DNA of 64,000 bases from an uncultured Actinomycetes bacterium. Lineage in GTDB: Bacteria > Actinomycetota > Acidimicrobiia > IMCC26256 > DASPTH01. The stretch is taken from contig CAVWPI010000006.1 of the NCBI GenBank assembly GCA_963756895.1, positions 178,572 to 242,571 on the forward strand, read 5' to 3'. Made by a program: the position numbers and the translations under genes. The notes under the pieces were generated by a model. That model made no database searches. It saw only the letters and a program-made list of their open reading frames with translations, and had not been told where the DNA came from. Shown here piece by piece: positions 12,229-49,122 of this stretch (within the stretch, counting starts at the first letter, position 1; each line of letters opens with the position of its first letter).

Positions 12229-12281
12229 GGGTCGCGCATCCTCCGGAAGTTGCTCATCGCGGCAGGGATAGGGTCACTCGC

Positions 12282-14982: not shown

Positions 14983-16152
14983 GTGAACGAGCGCGACGAG
15001 CTCCTCGACGATGACCAGGCGCTGATCGCCGACGCGATCGCCGACCTGTGCACCGGGTTCGACGACGACTACTGGGCGCGATGCGACCGCGAGCACGAGT
15101 TTCCGTGGGACTTCTACGGGCGGCTGGCGGAGGGCGGCTGGCTCGGACTGGCCATCCCCGAGGAGTACGGGGGAGGCGGACGTGGCATCACCGACGCCGC
15201 GGTGATGCTCCACGAGATCGCGCGCAGCGGCGCGGCCATGAACGGCTGCTCGGCCGTGCACCTCACCGTGTTCGGTCTCAACCCGGTGGTGAAGTTCGGG
15301 AACGACCGGCTGAAGGACACCTTTCTCCCCCGCGCGGCCGCGGGTGAGCTGCACGTCGCGTTCGGCGTCACCGAACCCGACGCCGGCACCGACACCGGCC
15401 GCATCACCACCCGCGCCGAGCCCGACGGCAACGGCGGCTGGCGCATCCACGGCCGCAAGATCTGGACCAGCAAGGCACTCGAGTCCGAGGTCGTCCTCCT
15501 CATCGCGCGCACGGGCGAGAAGGACAGCGGCCTGAAGGGTCTGTCGCTGTTCCTCGCCGATCTCGACCGCGACTACGTCGACATCCGGGCGATCCCGAAG
15601 GTCGGCCGCAACGCGGTGGCGTCGTGCGAGGTCGCGTACGACGGCCTCCCGGTCGAGAGCTGGCGCCTCCTGGGCGAGGAGGGCAACGGCTTCCGGCTCC
15701 TGCTGCACGGGCTCAACCCCGAGCGCGTCCTGCTGGCGTCGGAGGCGTGCGGCATCGGCGAGGTCGCGCTCGACCGCGCCATCGCGTACGCCAAGGACCG
15801 CATCGTCTTCGATCGCCCGATCGGCGCCAACCAGGCGATCAGCCACCCCATCGCGCACGCCCATGCGCAACTGCGCGCGGCGTGGATGATGGCTTTGCAC
15901 GCGGGACGACGCTACGACGCCGGCCTCGAGTGTGGCGAGGCCGCCAACACCGCCAAGTACCTCGCGGCAGAGGCGTCGTTCTACGCCGCCGACCGCGCGG
16001 TGCAGACGCTCGGCGGCATGGGCTACGCGTCCGAGTATCACGTGGAGCGCTACTGGCGCGAGGCGCGCCTGCAACGCATCGCGCCTGTCACCCAGGAGAT
16101 GACGCTCAACTACCTCGCGCAGAACATCCTGGGCCTGCCCCGCAGCTACTGA
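14983..16152 (+). CDS. Acyl-CoA dehydrogenase
   Basis: Intact 389 aa: ...VAFGVTEPDAGTDTGRITTRAEPDGNGGWRIHGRKIWTSKA...DRPIGANQAISHPIA...QTLGGMGYASEYHVERYWREARL... Confidence 0.85.
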   Translation: MNERDELLDDDQALIADAIADLCTGFDDDYWARCDREHEFPWDFYGRLAEGGWLGLAIPEEYGGGGRGITDAAVMLHEIARSGAAMNGCSAVHLTVFGLNPVVKFGNDRLKDTFLPRAAAGELHVAFGVTEPDAGTDTGRITTRAEPDGNGGWRIHGRKIWTSKALESEVVLLIARTGEKDSGLKGLSLFLADLDRDYVDIRAIPKVGRNAVASCEVAYDGLPVESWRLLGEEGNGFRLLLHGLNPERVLLASEACGIGEVALDRAIAYAKDRIVFDRPIGANQAISHPIAHAHAQLRAAWMMALHAGRRYDAGLECGEAANTAKYLAAEASFYAADRAVQTLGGMGYASEYHVERYWREARLQRIAPVTQEMTLNYLAQNILGLPRSY

Positions 16153-16178
16153 CCCTCACCCCGCCCCATCCGCACCAT

Positions 16179-16215
16179 GCGTCAACGTTGCGGACATATC
16201 CAGCAACCTTGACGC
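16179..16215. terminator. Stem-loop between convergent genes; candidate bidirectional intrinsic terminator
   Basis: GCGTCAACGTTGC-ggacatatcca-GCAACCTTGACGC: 13-nt arms with 12/13 complementary, read directly. Lies between the ACAD stop (16152) and the NIPSNAP stop (16224). No U-tract. Confidence 0.5.
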
Positions 16216-16223
16216 AGGTTCGT

Positions 16224-16973
16224 TCAGGTGACGCTGTCGTCCAGGGGCGCGATCGCCGGGGCGCAGAGGGAACCCACATGGGGCGTCATGAGCTCCTCGC
16301 GCCAGTGGACGGCCCAGGTGCGGGCGCGCTCGTGCCACGCCTCGAAGCGGGGATCGCCGGGGGTGTCGCCCTCGGACGCCAGTCCACGCGCGACGTCGCG
16401 CGCCTTGCCCGCCCGCACGTGCGCATCGGCGTCGGTGGCCCAGATGGTGCACACCTCGTAGTCGTTCATGAGCACCTCGTACAGCCCGACCAGTCGGTGG
16501 CCGTACTCGGCGAGCAGCGGCACACGCTCCTCGCGCACCGCGGCCAGGTAGTCGAGCGCCGTCCCCGGGCGCACCTCGGTGAGCTCGTGCACGAACAGCG
16601 AACCGCGGACCTCGTCACGCGTGAGCGACTCGATATTCGGGCACCCCGGGACCGCGCCGAGCAGTCGGTCGAAGCCGCCCGAGCGGTACTCGAACGCCTG
16701 CTTCCACCACGCGTTGAGCGTCACGTTGCTCGACCGCTTCAAGCCGAGGCGATCGACCTTGCCGAACCAACCGTCCCATCCACCGGGGATCTCCCACACG
16801 TTGACGACCTGCGGCCACCGGGCGGTGATGCCCATCGTGTACCAGGTGCCGAGGAGCTCGAACTCCACCTTCTCGTCACCCGACTGCTGGAGCGTGTGCT
16901 CCATGTAGTCCCACTGGTGCATGCCGTTGATGTCGATGAACTCGTGGAGGTACAGGTCACGGTCCGCTGCCAT
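16224..16973 (-). CDS. NIPSNAP-like protein (two dimeric alpha/beta-barrel repeats)
   Basis: ATG 16973 lies 6 nt after the upstream stop. MAADRDLYLHEFIDINGMHQWDYMEH... and the second repeat SLFVHELTEVRPGTALDYLAAVREERVPLLAEYGHRLVGLYEVLMNDYEVCTIWATD fit the NIPSNAP pattern. Confidence 0.5.
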   Translation of the reverse strand: MAADRDLYLHEFIDINGMHQWDYMEHTLQQSGDEKVEFELLGTWYTMGITARWPQVVNVWEIPGGWDGWFGKVDRLGLKRSSNVTLNAWWKQAFEYRSGGFDRLLGAVPGCPNIESLTRDEVRGSLFVHELTEVRPGTALDYLAAVREERVPLLAEYGHRLVGLYEVLMNDYEVCTIWATDADAHVRAGKARDVARGLASEGDTPGDPRFEAWHERARTWAVHWREELMTPHVGSLCAPAIAPLDDSVT

Positions 16974-16978
16974 TCCGC

Positions 16979-18555
16979 TCACGCGTCGTCTCCCCGGTCG
17001 AAGAGGTGCTGCAGGCCGGCCTTGTCGACCTTGCCCGTGGTGGTCATCGGTACGTCGTCCCCCCGATCGTGCACCACCGGGTCGGCACCTTGAAGGAGCT
17101 GAGCCGTTCCTTCGCACCGGAGGCAAGTTCGTCGACGGTCGCGCTCACGGCGTCGTCGGCGAGCACGACCACCGCGGCGACCTCGGTGCCGCCACCGGGA
17201 CCGACGACGTCGACCACGTAGGCGCGGCGCACCACGGGGAGCGCGTGCAACGCCCGCTCAACCTCGCTCGGATAGACCGTCGCACCGCGCACCTTGAACA
17301 TGTCGTCGCGGCGGCCCGTGAGGAACAGGAACCCGTCAGCGTCGAGGTGCCCGACGTCGCCGGTCGCGTAGAACTCGTCCTCGGTGAAGACCTCCGCACG
17401 CGTCCGACCACAGATGCCCCGCATGAGGTTGGGGCCGCGCAGCTGCAGCTCGCCGGTCTCACCCGCCGCGACCGGCGCGCCGGTGCCGAGGTCGACCACG
17501 CGCACCTCGACGCCGTCGAACACCTGCCCGCAACCGCCCTCCTTGCCGAGCGGGAGCGTCTGGTCGAGTCGGTAGCCGGCGTAGGGCCCGAACGACTCGG
17601 TCATGCCGAGCAGACCCGCACGCTGACCCGGGGCCGCCTGCTGAGCCGCGGGCATGACTGCGTCGAGGCTCCCCGGGCGGAGCGACGAGAGATCGGCCGA
17701 CGCGAAGCCCGGGTCGCGCGCCAGCGCCGCCGCCTGGTCGGGCCACCCGCGGAACAGCGTCACCCGTTCGCGCTCGAGGAAGGGCAACGTGCGCGCGGGT
17801 TCGGGCCGCGCTTCGGTGAGCAGGGTCGCTCCCGCGAGGAGGGTCGAGAGGAGGCCGGTGCCGAGACCGCCCACCCAGAAGAAGGGCATCGGGATGTAGA
17901 GCCGGTCGTCGCGCGTGAGGCGGCGGACCTCGAGGCCGGCGGCGGTCGCGGCCAACGCGCCGCCGTGGGTGTGGATCACGCCCTTGGGCGTGCCGCGGCT
18001 GCCGGAGGTGAACACGATGGCGAGGTCGTCGGCGGGTCGCACCGACGCGTCGAGCGCGGCGACGAGCTCCGGGGCGTGCGCCGTATCCGGAGCGGGACTG
18101 GCGTCATCCCACACCGTGACCGTGCGCAGGCGAGGCAGCACGTCGATCATCAGTCGCGGCCCCGCCACCAGCTCGGGCGAGATCGCCATGAGGTCCGCGA
18201 CGTAGTCACGACCGAGGAACTCGCCCGGGAGCACGAGATGCTCGACGCCCGCGGTCCGCAACTGCGCCGCCAGCTCGGGCGGGCGGAGGAAGGTGGAGAG
18301 CGGCACGAGGGTGGCGCCCGCGCGCAGCGCCCCGAATGCCACCACGGGCCACGCGGTGCCATTCGGCATCAGCACACCGACGCGCGTGCCCTTGCCGACG
18401 CCGAGGTCGACGAAGAGACCGGCACGTGCAGCGCTGCGGCGCTCGAGCTCGCCGTAGGTGAGGGTGTCGTCGGCAGTGACGACGAACGCTCGGTCGGGCT
18501 GCTCGTCGGCCCAGCGGCGGACCAACGCGGGCACGGTGAGGCGCTCAGTGCTCAT
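16979..18555 (-). pseudogene. Acyl-CoA synthetase (ANL adenylate-forming enzyme); one frame break in a C6 run at 17059-17064
   Basis: MSTERLTVPALVRRWADEQPDRAFV...IVFTSGSRGTPKGVIHTHGG...LLGMTESFG...YATGDVGHLDADGFLFLTGRRDDMFKVRGATVYPSEVE...FKVPTRW, then after the break DDVPMTTTGKVDKAGLQHLFDRGDDA stop. As assembled the ORF ends at 17044. Confidence 0.85.
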
Positions 18556-20107
18556 CGAACAGCTCCGCGATCGCGCCGAGGTCGGGCTTGCCGCTCGACA
18601 GCATCGGCAGGTCACCCGGTGCCAGCACCAGGAGACGACGGGGCACCTTGTACGCCGACAGGCGCGCCCGCAGATCCGTGCGCACGACGTCGAGGTCGGG
18701 CGCGGTGTCGGGCTCGGCCAGGATGACCGCCGCCACCACCTGGTCGCGCTCGGGGTCCGCGACGCCGATCACCATGCTCGCGAGCCCGCCGGTGATGTCG
18801 CTCAGCACCGCTTCGACCTCGAGCGGCGACACGTTCGCACCCGCGGTCTTGATCATCGAGCCCCGCCGGCCGTGGAAGTAGAAGAAGCCGTCGTCGTCGA
18901 CGTGGAACATGTCGCCGGTGCGGTACCAGCCGTCGGCGGTGAAGATCTCGAAGCGCTCCCGCCCGTAGTAGCCCTCCATCAGCGACGGACCGCGGAACCA
19001 GAGCTCACCCGTGGTGCCGACGGGCACGTCCGCCAGCGAGTCGGGATCCACGACCCGCGGGGTGAGGCCGGGGACCGGCAACCCGAACGAACCGCGTCGG
19101 CACTCGGGCTGGTCGGTCTCGTCGCCGCTCATGAGGCAGACGCTGCCGGTCTCGGTGGTGCCGAGCATGTTGTGGCGCAGCTCGAGGTCGGCCGGGCGGA
19201 TGGCCTCCGGCAGGAGGGGGTGCAGGTTGCCCGAGCGGATCGACGAGAAGTCGCGGGTCGCGAAGCTCGGGTGCGCGACCAGCGCCGCGATCGACGCCGC
19301 ATACCCGTTGGTGAGCTCAGGCCGCTCGCGCTCGATGAAGTCGAGGGTCTCGACGGGATCGGTGGCCGCCGAGCACAGCAGGGTGGCCCCGGCCACGAGC
19401 ACACCGATGATGTTGTAGGCGAGACCGCCGATCCAGAACATGGGCGAGTTCGAGAAGAGGCGGGTCCCGGCGTCGAGATTGCGGATGCCGTTCAGCGTGT
19501 GGAGGTGGCCGAGCAGCGCTCCGTGCTGGTGGATCACGCCCTTGGGCGCACTGGTGGAGCCCGATGTGTGGACGATGATCATGCGGTCGTCCGGGGTGAT
19601 GTCGTCCTCGACCGCGTCGAGCACCGCGTCGGGGACGTCGTCGGCGAGCGCTTCGAGGGCCGCGAACCCGTCGAGCCACACCTGCCGGAGGTGCGGCGCC
19701 GCGTTCGAGCGCGCGCCGTCGCCGACGGGCCCGACGGCGTCGTCGAGCGCGGCCGCGTAGTCGTTGCCGCGGTAGCTGCCCACACCGACCACGACATCGA
19801 CATCGGCGCGCGCGAGCAGATCGCGGAGCTCGCGCGCCGTGGAGAACGTGCTGATGGGGACGGCGATGGCACCGACGCGCACCGCGGCCAGCCACGCGAG
19901 CACGAAGTCGACCCCGGTCGGGAAGAGCAGACCGACCCGGCTGCCCCGACCGGCGCCGGTTGCGAGGAGACCGCGTGCGAGGACGCGGCTGCGCCGTTCG
20001 GCGTCGCCATAGGTCAGACGGTCGTCGTCGCAGACGACGTAGTCGGCGTCGGGCCGTGCGCCGACGTGCGCACGCAGCACGCGGCTGACCGTGGTCGCTC
20101 CGTTCAT
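18545..20107 (-). CDS. Acyl-CoA synthetase (ANL adenylate-forming enzyme)
   Basis: Intact 520 aa: IIVHTSGSTSAPKGVIHQHG, MLGTTETG, WYRTGDMFHVDDDGFFYFHGRRGSMIKTAGANVSPLEVE, LSSGKPD. The ATG overlaps the upstream stop (ATGA). Confidence 0.85.
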   Translation of the reverse strand: MNGATTVSRVLRAHVGARPDADYVVCDDDRLTYGDAERRSRVLARGLLATGAGRGSRVGLLFPTGVDFVLAWLAAVRVGAIAVPISTFSTARELRDLLARADVDVVVGVGSYRGNDYAAALDDAVGPVGDGARSNAAPHLRQVWLDGFAALEALADDVPDAVLDAVEDDITPDDRMIIVHTSGSTSAPKGVIHQHGALLGHLHTLNGIRNLDAGTRLFSNSPMFWIGGLAYNIIGVLVAGATLLCSAATDPVETLDFIERERPELTNGYAASIAALVAHPSFATRDFSSIRSGNLHPLLPEAIRPADLELRHNMLGTTETGSVCLMSGDETDQPECRRGSFGLPVPGLTPRVVDPDSLADVPVGTTGELWFRGPSLMEGYYGRERFEIFTADGWYRTGDMFHVDDDGFFYFHGRRGSMIKTAGANVSPLEVEAVLSDITGGLASMVIGVADPERDQVVAAVILAEPDTAPDLDVVRTDLRARLSAYKVPRRLLVLAPGDLPMLSSGKPDLGAIAELFDEH

Positions 20108-22263
20108 GCCCGTCGCGCCGACACCGCGGGCAGCGCGCCGTGGTCGCCCTTCGCCGCGGTGAGATGCGCCTCGCAGAGGAGGTCGTCGCCGAGGAGCAGC
20201 TCGGCGTAGGCGGTGATGCGGCGGTCGTCGACGACGCGCTCGGCCCGGAAGACGAGCGGCGTGAGCAACGGTGTCGGGCGCCGGTACCGGATCGAGAGCT
20301 CCGCGGTCTTGCCCGCCAGCCCCAGCGCGCAGTTGAGCTCCTGGAGCACGCAGTCGAAGAACACCGCGAGGAACCCGCCGTGCACGATGCCGGGTGGCCC
20401 CTCGTAGCTGATCGGGAACTCCACCGTGCCGTGCGCACCTTCGTCGTCACCGCCCTCGTCGAGCTCGAGCGCGTAGCGGGGGACGCACGGGTTGTAGTCG
20501 CCGACGTCGTAGCCGTGGTCGACGTAGACCCGCCGGTCGGCGTCGCCCGCGTGATCGCCGATGCGGGGGCGGAGATCCGCAGGTGCCTGGGCGGCGAGCG
20601 CGCGCTGTGCGTCGCGGACGGTCTGGATCAGCGCTTCGAGCTCCGGGCTCGTCTGCTCCAACGAGAGCGCGGTGTCGGTGAGCTCGCGCAGCGCCGCGGC
20701 CAGCTCCGCCATCGCGGGCAGCGGCGGCTCGCCGAACACCCATCGCTTGTCGACGCTCACGACCGCGTCCCTGTCCGCGTCGGCCACCAGCTCGCGCACG
20801 GCGGCGAGATCGACCTTGCCTGACGCGGTGCGCGGCAGCGCGTCGACCACCGTGACCGACACCGGGACCTCGTACCGCGCCAGGTGCGCGCCCGCGAACT
20901 CGAGGACGGTGGCTTCGTCGAGCTCGGCGTCCGGTCGTCGTTCGACCGCGGCCACCGGCACCGCGCCGAGGCGCTCGTCGTCGACGCCCACCACCGCGGC
21001 CTCGGCCACGCCGGGCACCCGCTCCAGCGCCGTTCGCACCACCTCCGGTTGCACCTTGTAACCCCCGCGGAGGATGGTCTGATCGGCACGGCCGACGATC
21101 CAGAGGAAGCCGTCGGCGTCGACACGCGCCAGGTCGGTGGTGCGCACCCAGTCGTCGGTGCCGAGCTGCTTGGCGCGCACCTCCAGCAGGCCGACGACGT
21201 CGAGCCCGAGGTCGGTGCCGTCATCGGGATCGATCGACGCGCAACGAGCACCCTGCGTGCGCGCGCGACCGACGCTGCCGCGCTTGGCGACGGCGAACTG
21301 CTCGTGGTCTGCGAGGTTCCAGCCGGCAACTCCGCCGCCGAATTCGGTGGCGCCGTACGACGTGAGCACCGGCACGCCGTAGCGCGCGGAGAACACATCG
21401 GCGATGTCGGGGTCGAGCGGCGCGGTGCCCGACACCACCGAGCGGATGCTCTCGAACACGTCGTCATCGACATCGGCGTCGAGCACCATGCGCAGCGCGG
21501 TGGGCACCAGGCTCACAGTCTTGGGCCGGTGCTCGCGCACCGCCGCGGTCCATCCGTCGACGCTGAAGCGCTCGAGCAGCGCGATGCGACGACCGTCGAG
21601 CATCGCCTGCACCACGCGGAACACGCCGCTGACGTGGACGAGCGGTGCGTTGACGATGACGACCCCGGACCGGAGCCGGACGTCGCTCCCCGTGTCGGTC
21701 TCGTAATGCTTGGCCCCCCGCATCACCTGGTGGAGCATCTCGTAGCGCAGGTCGATGCGCTTCGGTGGCCCCGTGGTGCCGCTGGTGAGCATGCGGACCG
21801 CGACGCCAGGCGCATCGACGACGGCCGGCGCAGCGGCCGAGGGAGTGACCGCGATCGGGGCGGCGAGCGCACCGATCTCACCCCGAGCGGTCGTCGGCAG
21901 GTCGTCGGGAGCGATCAGCGCGAGGTCGTCGGCCGCGCCGAGCAGCAGCGGGAGCCCGAGACCGGGGACGTCGGCGCGCAGCCGTTCGGCGCCGAGCAGA
22001 GGGTTGACCGTGACCACGCACGCACCGGCGCGCAAGAGTCCGAGCATGATGCCGAGGGGGGACGGACGGTTGCGGAGCATGAGCCCGACCGGCGACCCCG
22101 CGCCGAGCCCGCGATCGCGGAGCACCGCGTCGACCGAGTCGGCCGCCGCCGACAGCTCGCCCCAGGTGGACCAGGTGCCCTCGAACTCGAGCGCGGGCGC
22201 CGACGGGTCGAGCGCCAGGACCTCGCGGAGGCGTTCCGGAATCGCGCGCATCGGTTCGCTCAT
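20104..22263 (-). CDS. Fusion protein: ANL acyl-CoA synthetase domain plus C-terminal PaaI-like hotdog (thioesterase-type) domain
   Basis: ATG 22263 overlaps the upstream stop (ATGA). Ligase motifs: RMLTSGTTGPPKRI, SYGATEFGG, VRTTDLARVDADGFLWIVGRADQTILRGGYKV, PRTASGKVD. These are followed by a helical linker (PAMAELAAALRELTD...) and a hotdog core YEGPPGIVHGGFLAVFFDCVLQE...LSIRYRRPTPL. 719 aa, no frame breaks. Confidence 0.8.
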   Translation of the reverse strand: MSEPMRAIPERLREVLALDPSAPALEFEGTWSTWGELSAAADSVDAVLRDRGLGAGSPVGLMLRNRPSPLGIMLGLLRAGACVVTVNPLLGAERLRADVPGLGLPLLLGAADDLALIAPDDLPTTARGEIGALAAPIAVTPSAAAPAVVDAPGVAVRMLTSGTTGPPKRIDLRYEMLHQVMRGAKHYETDTGSDVRLRSGVVIVNAPLVHVSGVFRVVQAMLDGRRIALLERFSVDGWTAAVREHRPKTVSLVPTALRMVLDADVDDDVFESIRSVVSGTAPLDPDIADVFSARYGVPVLTSYGATEFGGGVAGWNLADHEQFAVAKRGSVGRARTQGARCASIDPDDGTDLGLDVVGLLEVRAKQLGTDDWVRTTDLARVDADGFLWIVGRADQTILRGGYKVQPEVVRTALERVPGVAEAAVVGVDDERLGAVPVAAVERRPDAELDEATVLEFAGAHLARYEVPVSVTVVDALPRTASGKVDLAAVRELVADADRDAVVSVDKRWVFGEPPLPAMAELAAALRELTDTALSLEQTSPELEALIQTVRDAQRALAAQAPADLRPRIGDHAGDADRRVYVDHGYDVGDYNPCVPRYALELDEGGDDEGAHGTVEFPISYEGPPGIVHGGFLAVFFDCVLQELNCALGLAGKTAELSIRYRRPTPLLTPLVFRAERVVDDRRITAYAELLLGDDLLCEAHLTAAKGDHGALPAVSARRA

Positions 22264-23051
22264 CGCACAGTGGGCGGCGTGCGGTCGACGCCGCGCTGCT
22301 GGATCTCCGCGAGGCCGACCGGGTTGCCGAGACGCGTGTACATGAGCCCCTGGTCCATCGCGGCGCGGTAGGGCTTGTCGAGCGACTCCCAGATCGCTCG
22401 GACCGTGCCCTGCGTCGCGACTGCCGGGTACGACGCGATCACACACGCGAGCTCGTGCGCGTGATCCCAGAGCCGGTCGCGCGGAACGACCTCGGTCACG
22501 AGCCCGAGCCGCAACGCCGTCTCCGCCGACACCCGCTCGCGGTTACCCATCAGGGCCATGCGCAGCGTGTCACCGAGACCGATGCGACGCATGAGCCCAA
22601 TCGGCTCGAGCGCCGACACGTAGCCGTAGGTGACGTGCGAGTCGAAGAAGGTGGCGTCGTCGGAGCACAGGACGACGTCGGCTTCGTTCACGAAGTAGAG
22701 CGCCCCGGCAGTGCACATCCCGTGCACCGCGCACACCACCGGCTTCCAACACTTCTGCCACTTGGGGCTGAGGAGCTCACCGGGATCATCGTGGTTCCAG
22801 ACGAGGTCGGGCTGCCCGAAGCTCTTCGATGTGTCGAGACCGGCCGAGAACGCGCGCTCCCCCGCCGCGCGCAACACCACGGCGTTGACGCGGTCGTCGG
22901 CCTTGACGACGTGCCACACGTCGCGCATCTCCTCGCACATCTGCCGGTCGAACGCGTTGAGCACCTCGGGGCGATCGAGGGTGACGGTGGCGACACGATC
23001 GTCGGGCGCAACTTCGTAGCGGATCGTGGCGTAGCTCACTCGGCTCTCCAC
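22260..23051 (-). CDS. Enoyl-CoA hydratase/isomerase (crotonase) family
   Basis: ATVTLDRPEVLNAFDRQM...VVLRAAGERAFSAGLD...KPVVCAVHGMCTAGALYF. GTG 23051, or GTG 23039 which forms a GTGA overlap with the upstream stop. Confidence 0.85.
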   Translation of the reverse strand: MESRVSYATIRYEVAPDDRVATVTLDRPEVLNAFDRQMCEEMRDVWHVVKADDRVNAVVLRAAGERAFSAGLDTSKSFGQPDLVWNHDDPGELLSPKWQKCWKPVVCAVHGMCTAGALYFVNEADVVLCSDDATFFDSHVTYGYVSALEPIGLMRRIGLGDTLRMALMGNRERVSAETALRLGLVTEVVPRDRLWDHAHELACVIASYPAVATQGTVRAIWESLDKPYRAAMDQGLMYTRLGNPVGLAEIQQRGVDRTPPTVR

Positions 23052-23839
23052 TGGGGCTCGCGCTTCTCCACGAACGCGTGCGGGCCCTCCTTGGCGTCTT
23101 CGGTGTGCAGGACCCGCTCGCGGAACGCCTCGGCGAGCAGCTCGGCCTCGTAAAGGGGCAACCCGAGACCCTTGCGAATTCCGAGACGCGTGCCGCGCAC
23201 CGCGAGCGGCGCGTTGCGGTTCACCATCGCTGCAAGCTCACGAAGCCGGTCGCCCAACAGGTCGTGCTCCACCACCTCTGTGATGAGGCCCAGCTCGTAC
23301 ACGCGAGCGGCGCTCAGGCGCTCCTGGCGACCCATGATCGCCATGCGCATGGCGACGTTGAGCGGCAGGGTGCGCGCCACCCGCACCATCTCGCGGCCGG
23401 ATGCCAGTCCGATGCTCACGTGCGGATCGAAGAACTGTGCTCGGTCCGAAGCGATCGCGATGTCGCAGGTGGTGACGAGATCCATGCCTGCGCCGCAGCA
23501 GATGCCGTTGACGCCCACGATGATGGGCTTGGCCATCGAGCGGAACGGCGGCGTCGCCTCCTGCGGCGCGTCCCACTCGTGGAAGCGCGAGAGGTACTTG
23601 CCGTCGAACGGCACCTTGCCGTCGTCACGCACCGTGTCGACATCGGCTCCGGTGCAGAACCCGCGTCCGGCAGCGGTGATGACGATGGTCCAGACGTCGT
23701 CGTCGGTCTCCACGCTCACGTAGGCGTCGGCCAGCTCCGCCTCCATCTGCCGACTGATCGCGTTCAGCTTGTCGGGCCGGTTGAACGTGATCGTCGCGGT
23801 GCGGTCCTCCACCTCGTAGAGGATCGTCTCGTACGTCAT
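23036..23839 (-). CDS. Enoyl-CoA hydratase/isomerase (crotonase) family
   Basis: MTYETILYEVEDRTATITFNRPDKLNA...VITAAGRGFCTGADV...KPIIVGVNGICCGAGMDL. ATGA overlap with the SDR stop. Confidence 0.85.
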   Translation of the reverse strand: MTYETILYEVEDRTATITFNRPDKLNAISRQMEAELADAYVSVETDDDVWTIVITAAGRGFCTGADVDTVRDDGKVPFDGKYLSRFHEWDAPQEATPPFRSMAKPIIVGVNGICCGAGMDLVTTCDIAIASDRAQFFDPHVSIGLASGREMVRVARTLPLNVAMRMAIMGRQERLSAARVYELGLITEVVEHDLLGDRLRELAAMVNRNAPLAVRGTRLGIRKGLGLPLYEAELLAEAFRERVLHTEDAKEGPHAFVEKREPQWRAE

Positions 23840-24621
23840 CGCACCACATACCCTCCGTCGACGATCACTTCCTGGCCCGTGATGTAGCTCGCTTCGTCGC
23901 TGGCCAGGAACAGGACGGCATCGGCGATGTCGTCCATGGCCCCCATGCGCTTCATCGGGAGGTGCGAAGCGAAGGCCGCCACACGTTCCTCCTGTGCGGC
24001 TTCGTCGAGGCCGTCACGTTCACCGGTGGTCATGGGGGTGCGCATGAAACCGGGCGAGACCGCGTTCATGCGCACTCCCCTCCGGGCGAGCTCGCGCGCG
24101 GTGTGTCGCGTGTAGCTGAGGATCGCACCCTTCGACGCTGCGTACGCCGAGCCGCCGGTGCACACCGACGCCGCGATCGAGGCCACGTTGACGATCGAGC
24201 CGCCGCCGGCCTGGAGCATCACCGGGATCGCCGCCTTGGAGCACACGAACACGCTCCGCAAGTTGACCTGCAGGACGAGGTCCCACTTCTCCTCGGTGGT
24301 GTCCCACGTGTCGCGGTCGTCGCCCTGGACGATCCCGGCGTTGTTCACCAACACGTCGAGCCGCCCGAGGCCGTCGACCGCGGCGGTCACCGCTTCGTTC
24401 GCCACGTCCAGGCTCGAGACATCACCGATCACCAGCCGACCCTCGGAGCCGGCGGCGCGCACCTCGTCGACGACAGCGCTCCCACGCAGTTCGTCGAGGT
24501 CGACGACCACGATCCGTGCGCCCTCGTGCGCGAACCGCAACGCGGTGGCGCGACCGAACCCGGACGCACCCCCCGTGACGATGGCAACCTTGTCGTCGAG
24601 TCGACCCACGTCAGCCTCCAC
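23836..24621 (-). CDS. Short-chain dehydrogenase/reductase (SDR)
   Basis: KVAIVTGGASGFGRATAL...LVNNAGI...SAYAASKGAI...: Rossmann TGxxxGxG and YxxxK motifs. Intact 261 aa. Confidence 0.85.
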   Translation of the reverse strand: MEADVGRLDDKVAIVTGGASGFGRATALRFAHEGARIVVVDLDELRGSAVVDEVRAAGSEGRLVIGDVSSLDVANEAVTAAVDGLGRLDVLVNNAGIVQGDDRDTWDTTEEKWDLVLQVNLRSVFVCSKAAIPVMLQAGGGSIVNVASIAASVCTGGSAYAASKGAILSYTRHTARELARRGVRMNAVSPGFMRTPMTTGERDGLDEAAQEERVAAFASHLPMKRMGAMDDIADAVLFLASDEASYITGQEVIVDGGYVVR

Positions 24622-26521
24622 GTTCGGGGGCCGTGACCACGAAGTCGTCGAGCACAGGTTCCCGGGTCATGCGCCAGTAGTCGATGAGCTTCCACGGCAT
24701 GTTGGTCGTCACCCGGCCGGCGTCGTTGTTGTAGTAGCTGTGCACGCGCGGATGCCTCCACACGAGATGCTCGTGCTCGGCGTCGACGCGTTCGTTGTAG
24801 GCGTCGTGCACGTCGCTCCTGCACTCCATGGTGGACCACCCGTGCTCGAGCATGGCACCGATCGCCTTGACGACGTAGTTGACCTGGCATTCGAGCACGA
24901 ACACCACGCTCCCGACCACCGGGTTGGTGTTCGGTCCGTAGAGGCAGAACAGGTTGGGGAAGCCGGGCATCGTGATCCCCACGTGCGCGCGTGGATCGTC
25001 GCCCCACTCCTCGGAGAGGACCCGGCCCCCTCGGCCGGTGATGGTCATCGGCCAGAGGTACTTGTTGGGATGGAACCCGGTGCCGAGGACGAGCACGTCG
25101 ACGCTCGCGGCGCTCGCCCGACTCGCTGACCACCGCGTGGGGCTCGACCCGGACCACGCGCTCGTTCACCAGGTCGACGTCGTCGCGCAGCAGCGTGCGG
25201 AACCAACCGTTGTCCTGCAACATGCGCTTGCCCAGCGCCGGGTAGTCGGGCAGCACTTCGGCCACCAGCTCGGGACGATCGGCCAGCTCACGTTCGACGT
25301 GGGCGGTCATCACCCGGCGGATCTTGTCGTTCTGCCGGCTGATCGACACGTCGGTGTCGGGCCAGTCGGGGTCGGCCCGGAACGCGGAATACATCCGGTC
25401 GGCGCTGTTCCAGAACTGCAGCACCCGGTACCACGCCAGGTAGTGCGGCACCGTGCGGAACAGCCACTTCTCCTGGTCGGTGACCGGCCGGTGGTAGTCG
25501 GGGTTGGGCAGGACCCAGTGGCGCGACCGCTGGAAGATCGTGACGTCCGCGGCGTCGGGCGCCACCGCGGGCACGAACTGCATCGAGCTGGCACCGGTGC
25601 CGACCACCGCGATCCGCTTGCCGTGCATGTCGACGTCGTGGTCCCAGCGGGAGGAGTGGAAGGACGGGCCCGCGAAGGTGTCGAGGCCCTCGATGTCGGG
25701 CACCGCCGGACGGTTGAGCATCCCGACCGCGCTCACGAGCGCGTTGACCGTGATCTCCGACTCGCCCGTGCCGTCTCGGAGGCTGACGAGCCAGGAACCC
25801 GCGCCTCGTCGAAGGTGGCCGAGCGCACCTCAGTACCGAACCGCACGTGCGGCAGGACGTTGTGCTCCTTGGCGCAGCTCGCGATGTAGTCGAACAGCTC
25901 GTGCTGGCACGCGTAGAAGTGCGACCAGTCGGGGTTGGGCCGGAACGAGTACGAGTAGAAGTGGTTGGGCACGTCGACCCGGAGATCGGGATAGGTGTTC
26001 TCGAACCACGTCCCGCCGACGTCGGGGTTCTTGTCGAACACCGTGTACGGGATCCCGGCCTGCTCGAGGCGGATCGCTGCGCACAGGCCGCCGAGCCCGG
26101 CGCCGATGATGCCCACGTGGAAGCGCGCCAGCGTCTCGTCGTCCGGGCGCTCGATCCACTCGAATCGCCGACGGTCGGCGCCGTCGAAGTCGGCCTCCTC
26201 CTCGACCAGCGCGACGTACGAGGCGTCGACCGTTTCGCCGACCGCGAACTCGATCAGCCGGTGCATCTCGGCGGCGTCGGGTCGACGTTCGGATGCGGCG
26301 TCGGGCAGGCCGGTGAGCGTGTCGAACGCCCACGCCCGGATCGCCTCGGCGTCGTCGGCGGTGAGCGATCCCGGACCCCGCCCGTGGTCGAAGGTGCGCG
26401 GCTCGGGATGCGCGTCGACCACCGACAGGTCGCCGCTCAGGTGGGCCACCGCGGCAACGAGCACGGCGAGGTTGGCCGCGGGCAGCGCGGCCGCGAGCTC
26501 CCCCGCGTCGATCCGGTTCAC
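24611..26521 (-). pseudogene. Type I Baeyer-Villiger (flavin-containing) monooxygenase with ~135-aa N-terminal extension; 2 frame breaks (near 25790 and 25100)
   Basis: MNRIDAGELAAAL...FHVGIIGAGLGGLCAAIRLEQAGIPYTVFDKNPDVGGTWFENTYPDLRVDVPNHFYSYSF... / ...LDTFAGPSFHSSRWDHDVDMHGKRIAVVGTGASSMQ... / MLVLGTGFHPNKYL...NLFCLYGPNTNP... The BVMO fingerprint FxGxxxHxxxW[P/D] and two GxGxxG motifs are present. Confidence 0.8.
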
Positions 26522-27390
26522 GGCAGGCCGTCGACCCCGAAGTGCTCGTCGCGCGCTTTGAACGCCTCGCTCGTCCCGACCTTCGCGCGCGTCTTCACGA
26601 AGTTGAACTCGTCACCCTCGAAACGGAGGTTGGTTGCGAACGCGTGCACGAGGAACCCACTCGCCTCCTCCCCGACGTAGGCGGTGCTCTGCTCCACGAG
26701 GGCGAAGCTCGTCTTGGCGATGGCGAGGCCGTCGGCCGGCATGCGCGCGACCTTGGTGGCCCACAGCTCGGCACGCTCTGCGACCACCTCGGGTTCGCAC
26801 ACCTCGGTGAACACACCGAGGTGCTCCACCTCGCCGCCGGTGATGGTGTCGCCGGTGAGCAGCAGGCGCCGGGTCAGCACCGGTCCGAGCCGATGGAAGA
26901 AGAGGTGCAGGTTGCCGAGGGCCGGACCGAGCAGCCGCGCCCCGGGCATCCCGAGCTTGGCGTCGCGCGCCACGACGGCGATGTCGGCCATCAACGCGAT
27001 CTCGAAGCCACCGCCGAGTGCGTACGTCTCGACCTGCGCAACCGTGACCTTCGGGTAGGTCATGAGCTCGTGGTAGAACGCGAAGCTCTCGCGGTCGACA
27101 CCCAGCCGGCGACGCTGACTCGGCCGCCGCCCGTTGGGGTCGTTGCCGTACCAGGCGTACGAGTTGGCCATGTCGGCGCCGGTGCTGAACACGCCGTCGA
27201 CGCCGCGCAGGATGACGACCTTGATGTCGTCGTCGGTCGCGATCTCGTCGAGGTGCGTGCGCATGGCGCGCCGCATCGGCGGGTCGTACGCGTTGCGACG
27301 GTCGGGGTTGTCGATCGTGAGCCACGCGACGTGGGTCTCGGGATCGCGTTCGCACGTGATCCGCGGGTCGAGTTCGCTCGTGTCGTTCAT
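26518..27390 (-). CDS. Enoyl-CoA hydratase/isomerase (crotonase) family
   Basis: MNDTSELDPRITCERDPETHVAWLTIDNPDRRNAY...VILRGVDGVFSTGADM...VAQVETYALGGGFEIAL. ATGA overlaps at both ends. Confidence 0.8.
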   Translation of the reverse strand: MNDTSELDPRITCERDPETHVAWLTIDNPDRRNAYDPPMRRAMRTHLDEIATDDDIKVVILRGVDGVFSTGADMANSYAWYGNDPNGRRPSQRRRLGVDRESFAFYHELMTYPKVTVAQVETYALGGGFEIALMADIAVVARDAKLGMPGARLLGPALGNLHLFFHRLGPVLTRRLLLTGDTITGGEVEHLGVFTEVCEPEVVAERAELWATKVARMPADGLAIAKTSFALVEQSTAYVGEEASGFLVHAFATNLRFEGDEFNFVKTRAKVGTSEAFKARDEHFGVDGLP

Positions 27391-28214
27391 CGGCTGAACA
27401 GGAAGTCCTGCGCGTTCTGGTACAGGTAGTTGTCGAGGACCTCGGGCGGCAGGTCGAGCTCCGACGCTTCCTTGACGGTCCTCCGGATCGACAGCACCGG
27501 CGAGTCGGAGGCGAACATCACGCGACCCTTGCCGCGAGTGCGCATGAAGTGCAACAGCGACTCGGGCAGGTGCCGCGGGGCCCACGCCGACGTGACCAGC
27601 CGCAGGTTCGCGTACTTGATCATCAGGCGGATGGCGACGTCCCACCACGGATCGGCGCCGTGCATCATCGCCAGACGGAGCTCGGGAAAGCGCACGCAGA
27701 CGCGGTCGAGGTGGATCGGGTTCTGCACCTCGCCCGGGATGGGCGGACCGGGCAGACCCGTGTTCATGAACAGTGGGAGATCGAGCTCGCAGCACTTCGT
27801 GTAGAGCGGGTAGTAGACCGCGTCGCCGGGCGCGTACATCCCGTCGCCCCAGAAGCTGGGACCGATGACCGTGTAGGCGACCGGGTGGTCCTTGACGAAC
27901 GACTCGAGGTTGCGCAGGTTCTCCATCGGGCGCAGGAGGTTGTGACCGCCCAGTCCGAGGTGGAACCGATCGGGCCGCTGCTCGACGAACGACAGCACCC
28001 GCTCCGACGAGCGGGTCATGTTGGTCATGAGCACGGCGCGCTCGACGCCCATCTCGTCCATCTCGTCGAGCAGCTCGTTGATCTCACGGCTCTCGAACAT
28101 CGACTGCCCGGCCTTGAAGTAGTCCTCCTTGACCCGGACCATCCAGTCGGGCTGCTTCATGTCGCCCATGTCGGTGTTGACCAGCAGGTCGTGCGCGCGT
28201 GCGACGACTCCCAT
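27387..28214 (-). CDS. Amidohydrolase-2 family (PF04909-like) protein, short form
   Basis: Intact 275 aa: ...YYPLYTKCCELDLPLFMNTGLPGP...RFPELRLAMMHGADPWWDVAIRL...RVMFASDSPVLS... The usual N-terminal HxH is not visible (LVNTDMG instead). Confidence 0.7.
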   Translation of the reverse strand: MGVVARAHDLLVNTDMGDMKQPDWMVRVKEDYFKAGQSMFESREINELLDEMDEMGVERAVLMTNMTRSSERVLSFVEQRPDRFHLGLGGHNLLRPMENLRNLESFVKDHPVAYTVIGPSFWGDGMYAPGDAVYYPLYTKCCELDLPLFMNTGLPGPPIPGEVQNPIHLDRVCVRFPELRLAMMHGADPWWDVAIRLMIKYANLRLVTSAWAPRHLPESLLHFMRTRGKGRVMFASDSPVLSIRRTVKEASELDLPPEVLDNYLYQNAQDFLFSR

Positions 28215-28258
28215 CGGATCAGCTTCCTCTCGTCGGGCCCCGCGCTCGGCGGAGTCGA

Positions 28259-29443
28259 TCAGGCGGACGGCCCCAGCAGGCCGAGGGCGTTGTCGCGCAT
28301 CACCAGGCGGATCTCGTCGTCAGAGAACGCGTGCAGCTCCTTGACGAAGTCGAGCGGGTTGGCCAGCGCCTCACCGTGCGGCCAGTCGGAGCCGAACAGC
28401 ACCTTGTCGGTACCGATGAGGTCGGCGAGCTTGCGCATGTCCTCTTCGTAGTACGGCGTCACCCACACGTGCTCCCGCATGGTGTCGAGCGGGCTCTCGG
28501 GGAACAGCCACGGCGTCTGGTTGGCCTGCTTGAGCAAACGCTTCACCAGCAGTCCGACCCAATCGGAGCCGTTCTCGATGCTCGCGGCGCGCAGCTTCGG
28601 GTGTCGGTCGAACACGCCGTCGACCACCATGCTGCCGATGCTGTCGTGGATCGGTCGGTCCGACACCACGAGCTTGCTGAGCACGTCGACACCACCGCGG
28701 AAGGGCTCGAACCAGTCGCGCGCGCCCCATGCGCCGGCGAACATCTCGTAGCCGCTGTCGCCGAGGTGGAACGCGACCGGCACGTCGGCCTCCGCAAGCC
28801 GCGCCCACACCGGGTCGTGGTCGGGATGCCCGAACGAGCGACCCTTGCCGTTGGCGGTGGGGACGGGTGCGGGTCGCAGGTGCACCATCCGCGCGCCGCG
28901 GTCGAGCACCCACTCGAGCTCGGCGATCGCGGCGTCGGGATCGGCGAGCGAGAGCATCGGTACGCCGTAGACGCGATCCTGGTGCGCGAAGCCCCAGTCC
29001 TCGTCGAGCCACTGGTTGAACGCGTGGAGCACCGCGGTCGTGGCCTCGATGTCGTCGCGCAGCATCTGCTCGATGCCGACCGCGAGCGTCGGGAACAGGA
29101 CGACGGCGTCGAGGCCCTGCTCGTCCATCACGGCCATGCGCGCGTCACGGTCCTGGTACTCGGCCCGCAGGGGCTCGAGCTTCATGAGCGAGCGGGGGTC
29201 GACGCCCTCGGGGATCTGGCCGCGGAACATGAGGTCCATGCAGCCGGCCACGATGATCGGGTCGAACGTGGGGTTCGGGATGAACTTGAAGAGCTTCCCG
29301 CCGACGAGCAGGAGCGAATGGGTGCCCTGCTGCACCACTTGCACGCCACGCTGCCGGAACTCCTTGGGGAGGTGCCGGGTGCACGCATCGAGGGTTTCGT
29401 AGTAGTGGTTGTCGGCGTCGACGGCGCGGTATTCGAGCTCCAT
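28259..29443 (-). CDS. Amidohydrolase-2 family (PF04909-like) protein; first gene of the long minus-strand operon
   Basis: ATG 29443 preceded by GGAGAGG. MELEYRAVDADNHYYETLDACTRHLP...VPVAFHLGDSGY...KVLFGSDWPHGEALANPLDF... 394 aa. The longer ORF to 30166 is antisense to the regulator gene and was rejected. Confidence 0.8.
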   Translation of the reverse strand: MELEYRAVDADNHYYETLDACTRHLPKEFRQRGVQVVQQGTHSLLLVGGKLFKFIPNPTFDPIIVAGCMDLMFRGQIPEGVDPRSLMKLEPLRAEYQDRDARMAVMDEQGLDAVVLFPTLAVGIEQMLRDDIEATTAVLHAFNQWLDEDWGFAHQDRVYGVPMLSLADPDAAIAELEWVLDRGARMVHLRPAPVPTANGKGRSFGHPDHDPVWARLAEADVPVAFHLGDSGYEMFAGAWGARDWFEPFRGGVDVLSKLVVSDRPIHDSIGSMVVDGVFDRHPKLRAASIENGSDWVGLLVKRLLKQANQTPWLFPESPLDTMREHVWVTPYYEEDMRKLADLIGTDKVLFGSDWPHGEALANPLDFVKELHAFSDDEIRLVMRDNALGLLGPSA

Positions 29444-29484: not shown

Positions 29485-29500
29485 AAACGTTATAACATTT
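29485..29500. promoter_or_regulatory. Candidate FadR/GntR operator: near-palindrome AAACGTTATAACATTT with perfect core GTTATAAC
   Basis: The only AT-rich element in the 29444-29588 divergent intergenic region. GT-N4-AC core. TATAAC reads as a -10-like hexamer on both strands. Confidence 0.5.
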
Positions 29501-29588
29501 CGACCATCGCGGCCACCTGTCGGAAGGCGGGTACCGTGGCGTCCCGATCGCCTGGCGGGGCGTGATTCGGCGGGAGACGGAGGCGTCA

Positions 29589-31538: not shown

Positions 31539-31562
31539 CGGGACACCGCAAGCTCGTTCGCG

Positions 31563-32024
31563 TCAGGGAGTGACGTCCAGGTGCATTCGTGTTCCGGGCG
31601 CGAACTGGGTCGGAACCTCACGGTCGGCGACGAACCCGACGGCGTCGTAGAAATCGAGTGCGTGCGAGTTTGCCGTGACCTCGATCCGGCTGGACCCACC
31701 GGCTCGGACCAGTGACACCGCATCGAGCACGAGCGCGCGAGCGACACCTCTGCGCATCCGATCAGGGTCGACGAACAGATCGTCCAACTCGGCGACGTCG
31801 CCAGCCGGAGTCGTGGTTGCGAACCCCACGACGCGACCATCTTCGACCGCGACCCGGGTGCGGCCCTCGAGGATCGACCCGATCTCGAACACCAGCACCT
31901 CGGGATTGGCCGACAATGCGTCTCGATCGCCCACGTTCGACAGCGAGGACCGTCGATAGACATCGCTGATCACTTCGAAGTCGCTCACGTCGGCACCGCG
32001 GATGAGGAAGTCGTTCATGCGCAC
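31563..32024 (-). CDS. GNAT family N-acetyltransferase
   Basis: Intact 153 aa: ...RVVGFATTTPAGDVAELDDLFVDPDRMRRGVARALVLDAV...ANSHALDFYDAVGF... Confidence 0.75.
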   Translation of the reverse strand: MRMNDFLIRGADVSDFEVISDVYRRSSLSNVGDRDALSANPEVLVFEIGSILEGRTRVAVEDGRVVGFATTTPAGDVAELDDLFVDPDRMRRGVARALVLDAVSLVRAGGSSRIEVTANSHALDFYDAVGFVADREVPTQFAPGTRMHLDVTP

Positions 32025-41810: not shown

Positions 41811-41919
41811 GGTTGCTCCCCCAGGACGGCTGGCCGCACTCTACCGACGGGAGCGGAGCCAGGCCAGGAGATGTGTAGAGCTTTGTCGGATACAGTCCCG
41901 CGTGACGAGGGGGACCGAA

Positions 41920-42708: not shown

Positions 42709-42727
42709 ACCTGGAGGTCGCAACCAC

Positions 42728-45142: not shown

Positions 45143-45154
45143 GATCTCTCTCCC

Positions 45155-49084: not shown

Positions 49085-49122
49085 GCACCGGCATTCTGTG
49101 GCCCCCGGGCCCTTCCGCGCCA

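Follow-up and report, generated by a model that had tools for sequence, protein, structure and literature searches.

A putative CoA-dependent catabolic operon around an orphan amidohydrolase-related oxygenase in an uncultured member of the Acidimicrobiia

What does a soil-type actinobacterium consume or make with a packed array of two amidohydrolase-fold proteins, three crotonases, three adenylate-forming ligases and a Baeyer-Villiger monooxygenase (BVMO)? The question is raised by positions 16224-29443 of a 64,000-nucleotide stretch of DNA (the window) from an uncultured Actinomycetes bacterium of the Acidimicrobiia (GenBank assembly GCA_963756895.1, contig CAVWPI010000006.1, positions 178,572 to 242,571 of the forward strand). 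A first-pass annotation had described an operon of unassigned function and suggested ketone oxygenation, ester or lactone hydrolysis, carboxylate activation and hydration. The computational follow-up reported here found the anatomy largely right and several annotations wrong; the description as uncharacterised stands, and the proposed chemistry needs revision. The locus is best described as a probable aerobic catabolic operon that depends on CoA and centres on an orphan from an oxygenase superfamily recognised only recently; it is not a categorically new system. With slightly better than even confidence, it is read as a repressor-controlled catabolic operon that takes a hindered (alicyclic or heavily branched) acid, plausibly derived from a terpenoid, along a CoA-thioester route.

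Open reading frame (ORF) listing, third-codon-position GC frame analysis and Pfam gave a chain of minus-strand genes that ran without a break from 29443 down to 16224, and the GC content was about 70% throughout the window. In order, the genes encode an amidohydrolase-related oxygenase (ARO), a second Amidohydro_2 protein (Amh2), the crotonase ECHa, the BVMO, a short-chain dehydrogenase/reductase (SDR), the crotonases ECHb and ECHc, ligase 1, a hotdog-fold protein, ligases 2 and 3, and a protein of 249 aa. The junctions from the ARO gene onward were a 44-nt gap, ATGA, GTGA at the crotonase/BVMO junction, an 11-nt overlap, ATGA and a 16-nt overlap, followed by ATGA, ATGA, an 11-nt overlap and a 5-nt gap before the last gene. 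Nearly all of them had been listed so before; the crotonase/BVMO junction had been given as ATGA and the last gap as 6 nt. A stem-loop noted earlier at the 3' end was recovered at 16175-16218, between the convergent ends of the operon and an acyl-CoA dehydrogenase (ACAD) gene. This hairpin folded with -39.8 kcal/mol (z = -3.51; 0 of 200 shuffles folded equally well) and is probably a bidirectional terminator; it has no U-tract and hence was not picked up by the consensus terminator scan. Three terminator-like sites were seen inside the operon against 3.3 expected by chance. A sigma-70 promoter scan gave 0 sites, a result that is uninformative in an actinobacterium with 70% GC. Overlapping or closely spaced genes, chance-level internal terminators and the terminal hairpin bear out the claim of a single, tightly coupled minus-strand operon. 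The eleven ORFs first listed were present, but the operon probably has twelve genes, because ligase 1 and the hotdog protein become separate after removal of one extra G.

The first gene (28259-29443, minus strand) encodes a protein of 394 aa with the Amidohydro_2 (PF04909) fold (Pfam E=7.7e-24). AROs, which bind two Fe/Mn ions and activate O2 for hydroxylation, are defined by an N-terminal D-x-H motif in the first beta strand and a C-terminal D-x-P-H-x-[DE] motif with about 200 or more residues ahead of it, and both motifs are reported to be absent from all characterised PF04909 hydrolases and decarboxylases (PMC13154177, 2026). The gene 1 product carries both, as D11-N12-H13 in VDADNHYYE and as D353-W-P-H-G-E358. 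In the PDB it matched 4DZI over its full length (E=4.3e-152), followed by PtmU3 (2.8e-24, 88.9 bits), DitZ (8UYR, 3.1e-13) and then the AibH and SfbO group. Because both signature motifs are present and the protein is orthologous to 4DZI, gene 1 probably encodes a diiron-type ARO, that is, a hydroxylase and not a hydrolase. The earlier equation of two amidohydrolases with ester or lactone hydrolysis accordingly fails for this gene. In the same study, 4DZI (Q73XC0) was treated as a putative ARO with its own cluster in the ARO sequence network, and was assigned to the diiron-dependent class on the ground that it formed no Mn(III)Fe(III) electron paramagnetic resonance (EPR) signal, in an experiment that contained no substrate. 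Diiron-type AROs usually have no neighbouring electron-transfer partner; about 17,000 AROs are annotated as 'amidohydrolases', and substrates are known for only a handful of them (PMC13154177). Literature searches on MAP2389c, Q73XC0 and 4DZI returned no functional study, substrate, pathway or gene-cluster description. The first of these names belongs to Mycobacterium avium subsp. paratuberculosis, which we take to be the source of 4DZI.

The genetic context of this ARO was conserved. The operon was found gene for gene in related Acidimicrobiia metagenome-assembled genomes (MAGs) and in 17 soil metagenome contigs, and the full layout of divergent regulator and CoA-transferase, twelve genes and convergent ACAD was present in loci L002 and L003 at 81-98% protein identity. 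In locus L001, homology to the window ends inside the BVMO gene (L001 6986-7468, window position about 25093), where a C-terminal BVMO segment is fused in frame to a glutamate synthase gene, and ARO, Amh2, ECHa and the BVMO N-terminus are missing; the junction reflects a real deletion or rearrangement, or else the contig was assembled as a chimera.

When species-representative genomes were scanned for the ARO, 79 loci were obtained. Neighbourhoods were counted for 33 of them, those that offered 18 kb of sequence or more and an ARO of at least 56% identity, and orthologs were scored at an identity of at least 45% within 10 kb. Amh2 was found near the ARO in 24 of the 33, the hotdog protein in 17, ECHb in 16, ECHc in 15, ECHa and ligase 2 in 14 each, ligases 1 and 3 in 13 each and the GntR regulator in 10, the SDR in three and the BVMO in only two. 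When any homolog was counted, ligases were present in 26, crotonases in 28 and ACADs in 25 of the 33. Carriers of ARO loci comprised Acidimicrobiia, Pseudofrankia, Parafrankia, Actinomadura, Williamsia, a Mycobacterium MAG and Myxococcota MAGs. A metagenome scan anchored on the BVMO gave 25 loci; where the BVMO was at least 56% identical, ECHa lay upstream and/or SDR-ECHb downstream in every contig with flanking sequence, and the gene for the 249-aa protein travels with clusters of this BVMO type. The modules suggested by these sequence comparisons are [ARO-Amh2], [ECHa], [BVMO-SDR], [ECHb-ECHc], [ligase 1-hotdog-ligase 2-ligase 3] and the 249-aa protein, with the BVMO form as one variant. The widespread core consists of ARO, Amh2, the three crotonases, the three ligases and the thioesterase-like hotdog protein, and BVMO, SDR and the 249-aa protein are a clade-specific addition.

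Amh2 (27387-28214, minus strand; Amidohydro_2, Pfam 2.1e-28) has neither D-x-H nor D-x-P-H-x-[DE] and is not an ARO; it shares 21% identity with the gene 1 product over 145 residues. His185 is invariant and Asp237 is kept in 32 of 32 orthologs. Among PDB entries Amh2 has a single real relative, the uncharacterised BB4693 (3IRS), on which the literature search found no functional study, and an exact-sequence look-up of Amh2 returned no record. Besides the orthologs that stand beside the ARO, weaker Amh2 homologs often lie 3' of distant AROs as well. Two roles are considered for Amh2, that of a hydrolase and that of an ARO partner subunit.

The BVMO gene (24611-26521, minus strand) was recognised by Pfam on pieces and is without an uninterrupted reading frame in the window. 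After frame repair the product has about 636 aa, of which about 130 form an N-terminal extension. Its FAD-binding motif (consensus G-x-G-x-x-G) reads GAGLGG at residue 140, its type I fingerprint (consensus F-x-G-x-x-x-H-x-x-x-W-[PD]) reads FAGPSFHSSRWD at residue 283, and the second nucleotide-binding motif is a variant, GTGASS; by these motifs it is a type I BVMO. PDB matches were steroid monooxygenase 4AOS (7.7e-64), CHMO, PAMO and OTEMO (1.1e-56). The SDR gene (23836-24621, minus strand; adh_short_C2, Pfam 3.8e-65) follows the BVMO gene in every related contig. The SDR passed only the NCBIfam subfamily model 'glucose 1-dehydrogenase' (243.9 bits against a cut-off of 215), a generic model that was not taken as its function.

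The crotonases ECHa (26518-27390), ECHb (23036-23839) and ECHc (22260-23051), all on the minus strand, belong to the crotonase superfamily by Pfam (ECH_1, 1.5e-31, 5.4e-42 and 3.2e-34). In an alignment to rat enoyl-CoA hydratase, the positions of the catalytic pair E144/E164 were occupied by Glu/Gly in ECHa, Asp/His in ECHb and Tyr/His in ECHc. The canonical two-Glu pair is thus absent from all three, which makes simple hydratases unlikely on sequence grounds and speaks against the hydration role assigned to them at first. ECHb matched PDB 3TLF at 1.5e-115, a solved ortholog on which no functional study was found in the literature; ECHc, a paralog of ECHb, matched the same entry at 8.8e-41. 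NCBIfam matches stayed below the cut-offs for PaaG (138 against 345 bits) and EchA19 (197 against 400). No thiolase was found in the operon or its syntenic relatives.

These results bear on a reading close to the first one, in which the BVMO would oxygenate a ketone, cyclic or aliphatic, and so yield a lactone or ester as substrate for both amidohydrolases; the three ligases would then activate the acids released, and the crotonases would hydrate enoyl-CoAs. The BVMO is indeed of type I by its fingerprint and is always flanked by ECHa and SDR in 17 soil contigs, PF04909 includes lactonases such as LigI, and Amh2 retains an invariant His and an Asp conserved among its orthologs. LigI is named among the non-redox members of the family (PMC13154177). 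The metal ligands in the gene 1 motifs, however, are of the oxygenase type and not of the hydrolase type, no crotonase has the Glu/Glu pair of a hydratase, and the BVMO is missing from 31 of the 33 genomes that share the ARO neighbourhood, so that it cannot define the pathway. A BVMO-centred system is consequently regarded as unlikely.

Ligase 1 (20757-22263; Pfam AMP-binding and AMP-binding_C), ligase 2 (18545-20107; AMP-binding, 2.9e-67) and ligase 3 (16979-18555; AMP-binding, 1.6e-66), all on the minus strand, are adenylate-forming enzymes. The phosphate-binding loop [ST]SG[ST]xGxPK[GR] and the C-terminal Lys are kept in all three, in ligase 3 after repair of a one-base deletion; the motifs are TSGTTGPPKR and SGKVDL in ligase 1 and TSGSTSAPKG and SGKPDL in ligase 2. 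By these motifs all three are predicted ANL acyl-CoA ligases. The best families below threshold were FadD3-like and generic long-chain ligases; ligase 3 matched the FadD3 family best in NCBIfam, with 248 bits where the cut-off is 657. Over a range of 50-90% identity the ligases stay together as a fixed trio. The hotdog-fold protein (20104-20760, minus strand) has an N-terminal extension and resembles thioesterases of the PaaI/THEM4 type, with PDB matches to 2OV9 (2e-20) and THEM4 (2e-6) and a weak Pfam match to 4HBT (0.0019). 2OV9, on which the literature search returned no functional study, has been assigned to the PaaI subfamily of thioesterases (PMC2698920).

The families of the ligases, the crotonases, the SDR and the adjoining ACAD are those usual in beta-oxidation, and a common fatty-acid beta-oxidation locus with redundant paralogs might be considered on that ground. 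Such a locus would not be expected to lack a thiolase and a 3-hydroxyacyl-CoA dehydrogenase of the usual type, to have only non-canonical crotonases, to include an ARO, a BVMO and a PaaI-type thioesterase, or to hold its ligase trio fixed over so wide a range of identity. This explanation is scarcely credible, and the early remark that the locus is no plain beta-oxidation locus was well founded.

As sequenced, ligase 1 and the hotdog protein form one continuous ORF (20104-22263, minus strand), an AMP-ligase with a C-terminal extension, which had been noted as an unusual fusion. The ORF hinges on a single surplus G within the GGG run at 20769-20771; with one G removed, ligase 1 ends in ...DRTRS-stop with a GTGA overlap, comparable to the ...ARS-stop ending in L003. 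The nearest homologs of the fused ORF were ligases of 493-500 aa that cover 68% of it. In L001, L002 and L003 a gene of its own, for a product of 213-222 aa, comes after the ligase gene and overlaps it by 4 nt (GTGA); the Illumina-derived soil contigs L102 (GTGA overlap) and L095 (TAG stop) likewise have two distinct genes. The fusion in the window is therefore probably an assembly artefact caused by a one-base homopolymer error. Genuine fusions of a ligase with a hotdog domain, about 700 aa long, do occur among more distant homologs (P0051, P0065, P0066 and P0082), so that whichever arrangement holds in the window, the two proteins are functionally linked. Locus L085 (ERZ25039533 contig_25551) has a true-looking ligase-hotdog fusion of 708 aa and two AROs. 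A glyoxalase/VOC-family gene lies there between Amh2 and one ARO, a hint that some clusters include a further isomerase/epimerase or dioxygenase step.

The operon had also been called nearly free of frame breaks, which was not the case. The BVMO gene spans three frames, with single-base indels relative to its relatives at about 25791-25807 and 25091-25109, and the protein sequence runs smoothly over both shifts (FDEAR/GSWLV and GERRE/VDVLVLGTGF, the slash marking the shift). In ligase 3 a single-base shift, an indel relative to L001-L003, lies within a G6 run at 17053-17068, after which the frame reads ...PMTTTGKVDKAGLQHLFDRGDDA-stop. If these breaks were real, they would mark a decaying pseudogene array that takes in the whole operon or, at the least, BVMO and ligase 3, and four or five single-base frame disruptions within about 15 kb are what such decay might leave. 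Third-codon-position GC periodicity, however, stays at 0.85-0.98 on either side of every break, and two of the three breaks, as well as the fusion site, fall in G-runs. The BVMO gene is uninterrupted in L002 (635 aa) and intact in the Illumina contigs L086-L088, in sister contigs of the same Nanopore project (ENA ERZ250394xx/395xx; 'MFD' MAGs) the breaks fall elsewhere, and truncated domain matches occur in genes across the whole window. The window appears to come from a Nanopore MAG; the 'MFD' names of the nearest genomes presumably denote Microflora Danica long-read MAGs. The breaks in BVMO and ligase 3 and the ligase-hotdog fusion are most likely sequencing errors, and a decaying operon is very unlikely.

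The last gene of the operon (16224-16973, minus strand) had been labelled NIPSNAP. No sequence match was found in Pfam, NCBIfam or the PDB, and NIPSNAP (PF07978) was not detected even at a Pfam E-value of 10; at least 556 homologs exist, all 'hypothetical', in a family without a Pfam model. An AlphaFold2 (AF2) model (pLDDT 87.5) predicted a tandem ferredoxin-like alpha+beta barrel. The top Foldseek matches to the model were the two-domain 'putative monooxygenases' 3MCS and 3F44 and then PenE, and the NIPSNAP structures 5IXU and 1VQY ranked 40th and 50th, after tandem proteins of the ABM type. The protein may be placed in the same broad ABM/NIPSNAP-like superfamily by its predicted fold, and the original label is reduced to that fold-level likeness.

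At the 5' end of the operon a divergent FadR-type regulator had been proposed, and a plus-strand gene at 29562-30341 encodes a protein with both the GntR winged helix-turn-helix and the FCD effector domain (Pfam 1.6e-16 and 1.9e-16). The regulator is 91-95% identical and likewise divergent from the operon in L002-L005. The divergent promoter region contains an AT-rich near-palindrome of 16 bp at 29485-29500, AAACGTTATAACATTT, which is unique in the window with 0 chance matches expected. It is conserved as AAA[CG]GTTATAAC[GA]TTT 5' of the ARO gene in L002-L006, inside otherwise diverged spacers, and takes the form AAACGTTATAATGTTT in L048. Repressors of the GntR/FadR subfamily combine these two domains with a palindromic operator of GT-N-AC type, and the GTTATAAC-centred palindrome is a plausible operator of the GntR/FCD regulator. 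The AAACGTTATAAC palindrome is absent from seven distant ARO loci (L008, L009, L014, L016, L017, L026 and L038), which share, close to the start of the ARO gene, a different repeat of the type ACTTTCC...GGAAAG / CGAAAG that may serve as operator for GntR-type regulators of their own.

Downstream of the regulator and in the same direction lies a gene for a family III CoA-transferase (30353-31573, plus strand; CoA_transf_3, Pfam 2.4e-71) with a frame break near 31160; homology to its relatives ends at ORF residue 269. Its best PDB matches were CaiB/BaiF, formyl-CoA transferase and succinate-hydroxymethylglutarate CoA-transferase, and it resembles the dicarboxylate type. An assignment as alpha-methylacyl-CoA racemase was rejected, as the racemase Far matched at only 9e-24 and true CoA-transferases far better. 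At the 3' end, the convergent ACAD gene (14983-16152, plus strand) encodes all three ACAD Pfam domains and was 94-97% identical and in the same position in L001-L003. The statement that the operon contains no acyl-CoA dehydrogenase is true of the operon itself, but this conserved gene adjoins it and ACADs are embedded in related clusters. In the Acidimicrobiia loci L018, L020, L022, L025, L028, L031 and L032 an ACAD-like gene, about 25-29% identical to the ACAD of the window, lies between ligase 1 and the hotdog gene, and another lies 3' of the ARO; the clade of the window has neither inside the operon.

The following sequence of reactions would fit the families encoded. One of the three adenylate-forming ligases would form the acyl-CoA, and the ARO would hydroxylate an unactivated C-H bond out of reach of an acyl-CoA dehydrogenase/hydratase pair. 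The SDR would convert the new alcohol to a ketone and, in the clade that bears it, the BVMO would insert oxygen beside the ketone to give an ester or lactone, which Amh2 might hydrolyse if it does not act as partner subunit of the ARO. The three non-canonical crotonases would isomerise and cleave C-C bonds or rings hydrolytically, in a retro-Claisen-type reaction, instead of a thiolase. Each hydrolytic cleavage would free a carboxylate for re-activation by the ligases or the CoA-transferase, and this need would explain the presence of three ligases beside a family III CoA-transferase. The PaaI-type hotdog thioesterase may release or rescue CoA and thus guard the CoA pool, as PaaI-type thioesterases do in the phenylacetate pathway, and the adjoining ACAD would pass the products to ordinary beta-oxidation. 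The GntR/FCD protein would repress the operon at the AT-rich palindrome until an acid or acyl-CoA effector is bound.

Several points weigh against this assignment. Every reaction step is read from family membership, and of 15 proteins scanned with NCBIfam none reached an equivalog cut-off, in agreement with the initial description of an operon of unassigned function. No Rieske motif (C-x-H...C-x-x-H) or other ferredoxin partner for the ARO was found by a motif scan of any frame of the 64 kb. The ARO could use the free acid rather than the CoA ester, as DitZ was studied with free dehydroabietic acid, and non-canonical residues alone do not demonstrate hydrolytic C-C cleavage by the crotonases. 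An SCP-x-type thiolase gene is located at 43994-45154, 14.5 kb upstream of the operon. Locus L103 is a cluster of the BVMO type without an ARO, and most clusters of the ARO type are without a BVMO; because each occurs without the other, ARO and BVMO need not act in one linear sequence. A bolder version of the proposed CoA-thioester route, to be regarded as tentative and rather doubtful, would be an undescribed thiolase-free route for acids with quaternary or tertiary carbons. In it the ARO would hydroxylate the acyl-CoA directly, the crotonases would cut C-C bonds hydrolytically and the ligase trio would re-activate the fragments; BVMO, SDR and the tandem-barrel protein would be a plug-in for ketones remote from the thioester, and the ARO and its neighbour a two-subunit hydroxylase without a Rieske partner.

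The ARO family also raises the possibility of a biosynthetic cluster, with a terpenoid or polyketide acyl-CoA as the molecule tailored, by analogy with PtmU3 in platensimycin/platencin biosynthesis. PtmU3 is the closest characterised ARO, and about 1,600 of the roughly 17,000 AROs lie within predicted biosynthetic clusters (PMC13154177). No polyketide synthase, nonribosomal peptide synthetase or terpene synthase was seen, however, in the window or the annotated flanks of the relatives, and a FadR-type regulator is in control. The ACAD, CoA-transferase, P450 and ligase neighbours are typical of catabolic islands, and the core is spread over Acidimicrobiia, Frankiaceae, Actinomadura, Mycobacterium and Myxococcota MAGs. 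A biosynthetic role is highly improbable, and the proposed CoA-thioester catabolism of a hindered acid is preferred.

The remainder of the window was searched as well. A second complete ARO gene (42726-43930, plus strand; D-D-H near the N-terminus, D-Y-P-H-T-D near the C-terminus), 23% identical to that of the operon, lies directly after an SDR gene (41707-42708) and before the SCP-x-type thiolase gene, which is on the other strand. A third Amidohydro_2 gene (3408-4580, minus strand), 25% identical to the operon ARO, is ARO-like with D-T-H and D-F-P-H-P-T; its last motif residue is not D/E, and it may be a variant or have a different activity. Four cytochrome P450 genes on the minus strand (6473-7399, 40140-41840, 45586-47037 and 50008-51096) have in several cases only partial Pfam coverage, consistent with frame breaks. 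There were further AMP-ligases (38144-39031, 47465-49123 and 61443-63089), a further ACAD (59262-60923) and a carboxyltransferase (51289-52953). The content of the whole 64 kb is consistent with one large catabolic island for complex lipids or terpenoids. Just past the ACAD adjoining the operon lie genes of the F420H2-dependent quinone reductase family (11800-12273, minus strand) and for a luciferase-like monooxygenase (12319-13212, plus strand); both are kept in place in L001 and L002, and of the two L003 retains the first alone. A long ORF (about 12927-14957, plus strand; about 580-680 aa) that separates the luciferase-like gene from the ACAD gave no Pfam match; its counterpart in L002 (578 aa) belongs to no Pfam family, and L003 has no counterpart. 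Rfam and tRNA scans of the window found no family and no tRNA.

The analysis provides the orphan 4DZI subfamily with a conserved genetic context of ligases, crotonases, a PaaI-type thioesterase and ACADs, which points to acyl-CoA chemistry, and makes the operon a good target for finding the substrate of this orphan ARO. Cultured carriers include Pseudofrankia asymbiotica (NRRL B-16386), Actinomadura rugatobispora (JCM 3366) and Williamsia faeni, to which M. avium subsp. paratuberculosis may be added if it is, as we assume, the source of 4DZI. The cluster is common in soil Acidimicrobiia, of which few members are cultured, and it may show how recalcitrant branched or alicyclic acids derived from plants and microbes are consumed. 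A practical caution is that three or four 'features' of the window stem from single-base indels, probably long-read errors.

No characterised cluster with this gene set was found in the PDB, plasmid records or literature, as the first-pass annotation had suspected; tblastn of the ARO against annotated plasmids gave only matches of at most 42% identity (Sphingobium, Rhodococcus and Streptomyces) and no orthologous clusters. The operon was compared with individual systems that share parts of it. 4DZI/Q73XC0 is an ortholog of gene 1 that behaves as a diiron-type ARO by EPR and has been a structural-genomics and spectroscopy target only; an ortholog of ECHb has been solved too (3TLF). PtmU3 accepts CoA-ligated substrates (PMC7782822). 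It is a non-heme diiron hydroxylase with an amidohydrolase TIM barrel and has the same D-x-P-H-x-E variant of the motif as the gene 1 product, but it is distant in sequence and works in biosynthesis. We know of no BVMO, ligase trio or PaaI-type thioesterase in the platensimycin/platencin system.

The 2-aminoisobutyrate hydroxylase AibH1H2 is an alpha2-alpha'2 heterotetramer with one catalytic and one non-catalytic amidohydrolase-fold subunit (PMC7782822). ARO and Amh2 resemble it as two adjacent amidohydrolase-fold genes with a dinuclear site in only one, and the pair persists even among distant ARO homologs. In contrast, AibH1 keeps D-x-H ligands for Zn and Amh2 has none, and AibH1H2 needs an adjacent Rieske ferredoxin and reductase, neither of which is encoded here, so that the pair, although separated by only 44 nt, is not of the AibH1H2 type. 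In steroid C/D-ring degradation (FadD3, EchA20 and IpdAB) rings are opened hydrolytically by crotonase-type enzymes before further CoA chemistry; EchA20 is cited in PMC13599519. The best family of ligase 3 is FadD3-like, but its score and that of EchA19 are far below the cut-offs, and no Ipd, Ksh, Kst or Hsa genes were seen. In the camphor pathway the BVMO OTEMO acts on a CoA-activated cyclic ketone, and OTEMO is among the PDB matches of the operon BVMO.

CoA-dependent aerobic 'hybrid' pathways are known for phenylacetate (PaaK, PaaI, PaaABCDE, PaaG and PaaF), for benzoyl-CoA (Box) and for 4-chlorobenzoate (ligase, crotonase dehalogenase and 4HBT thioesterase). They combine a ligase, a hotdog thioesterase, a diiron oxygenase that acts on the thioester and several specialised crotonases. 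The operon shares this logic, and its hotdog protein falls in the PaaI-type subfamily; its oxygenase, however, is a TIM-barrel ARO and theirs are ferritin-like diiron proteins, and no Paa or Box equivalog cut-off was reached. DitZ is a catabolic diiron ARO which, unlike the route proposed here, uses its substrate as the free acid, and its similarity to gene 1 is low. Its substrate in abietane catabolism, the bulky alicyclic dehydroabietic acid, is nevertheless comparable to the hindered acid proposed for the present operon.

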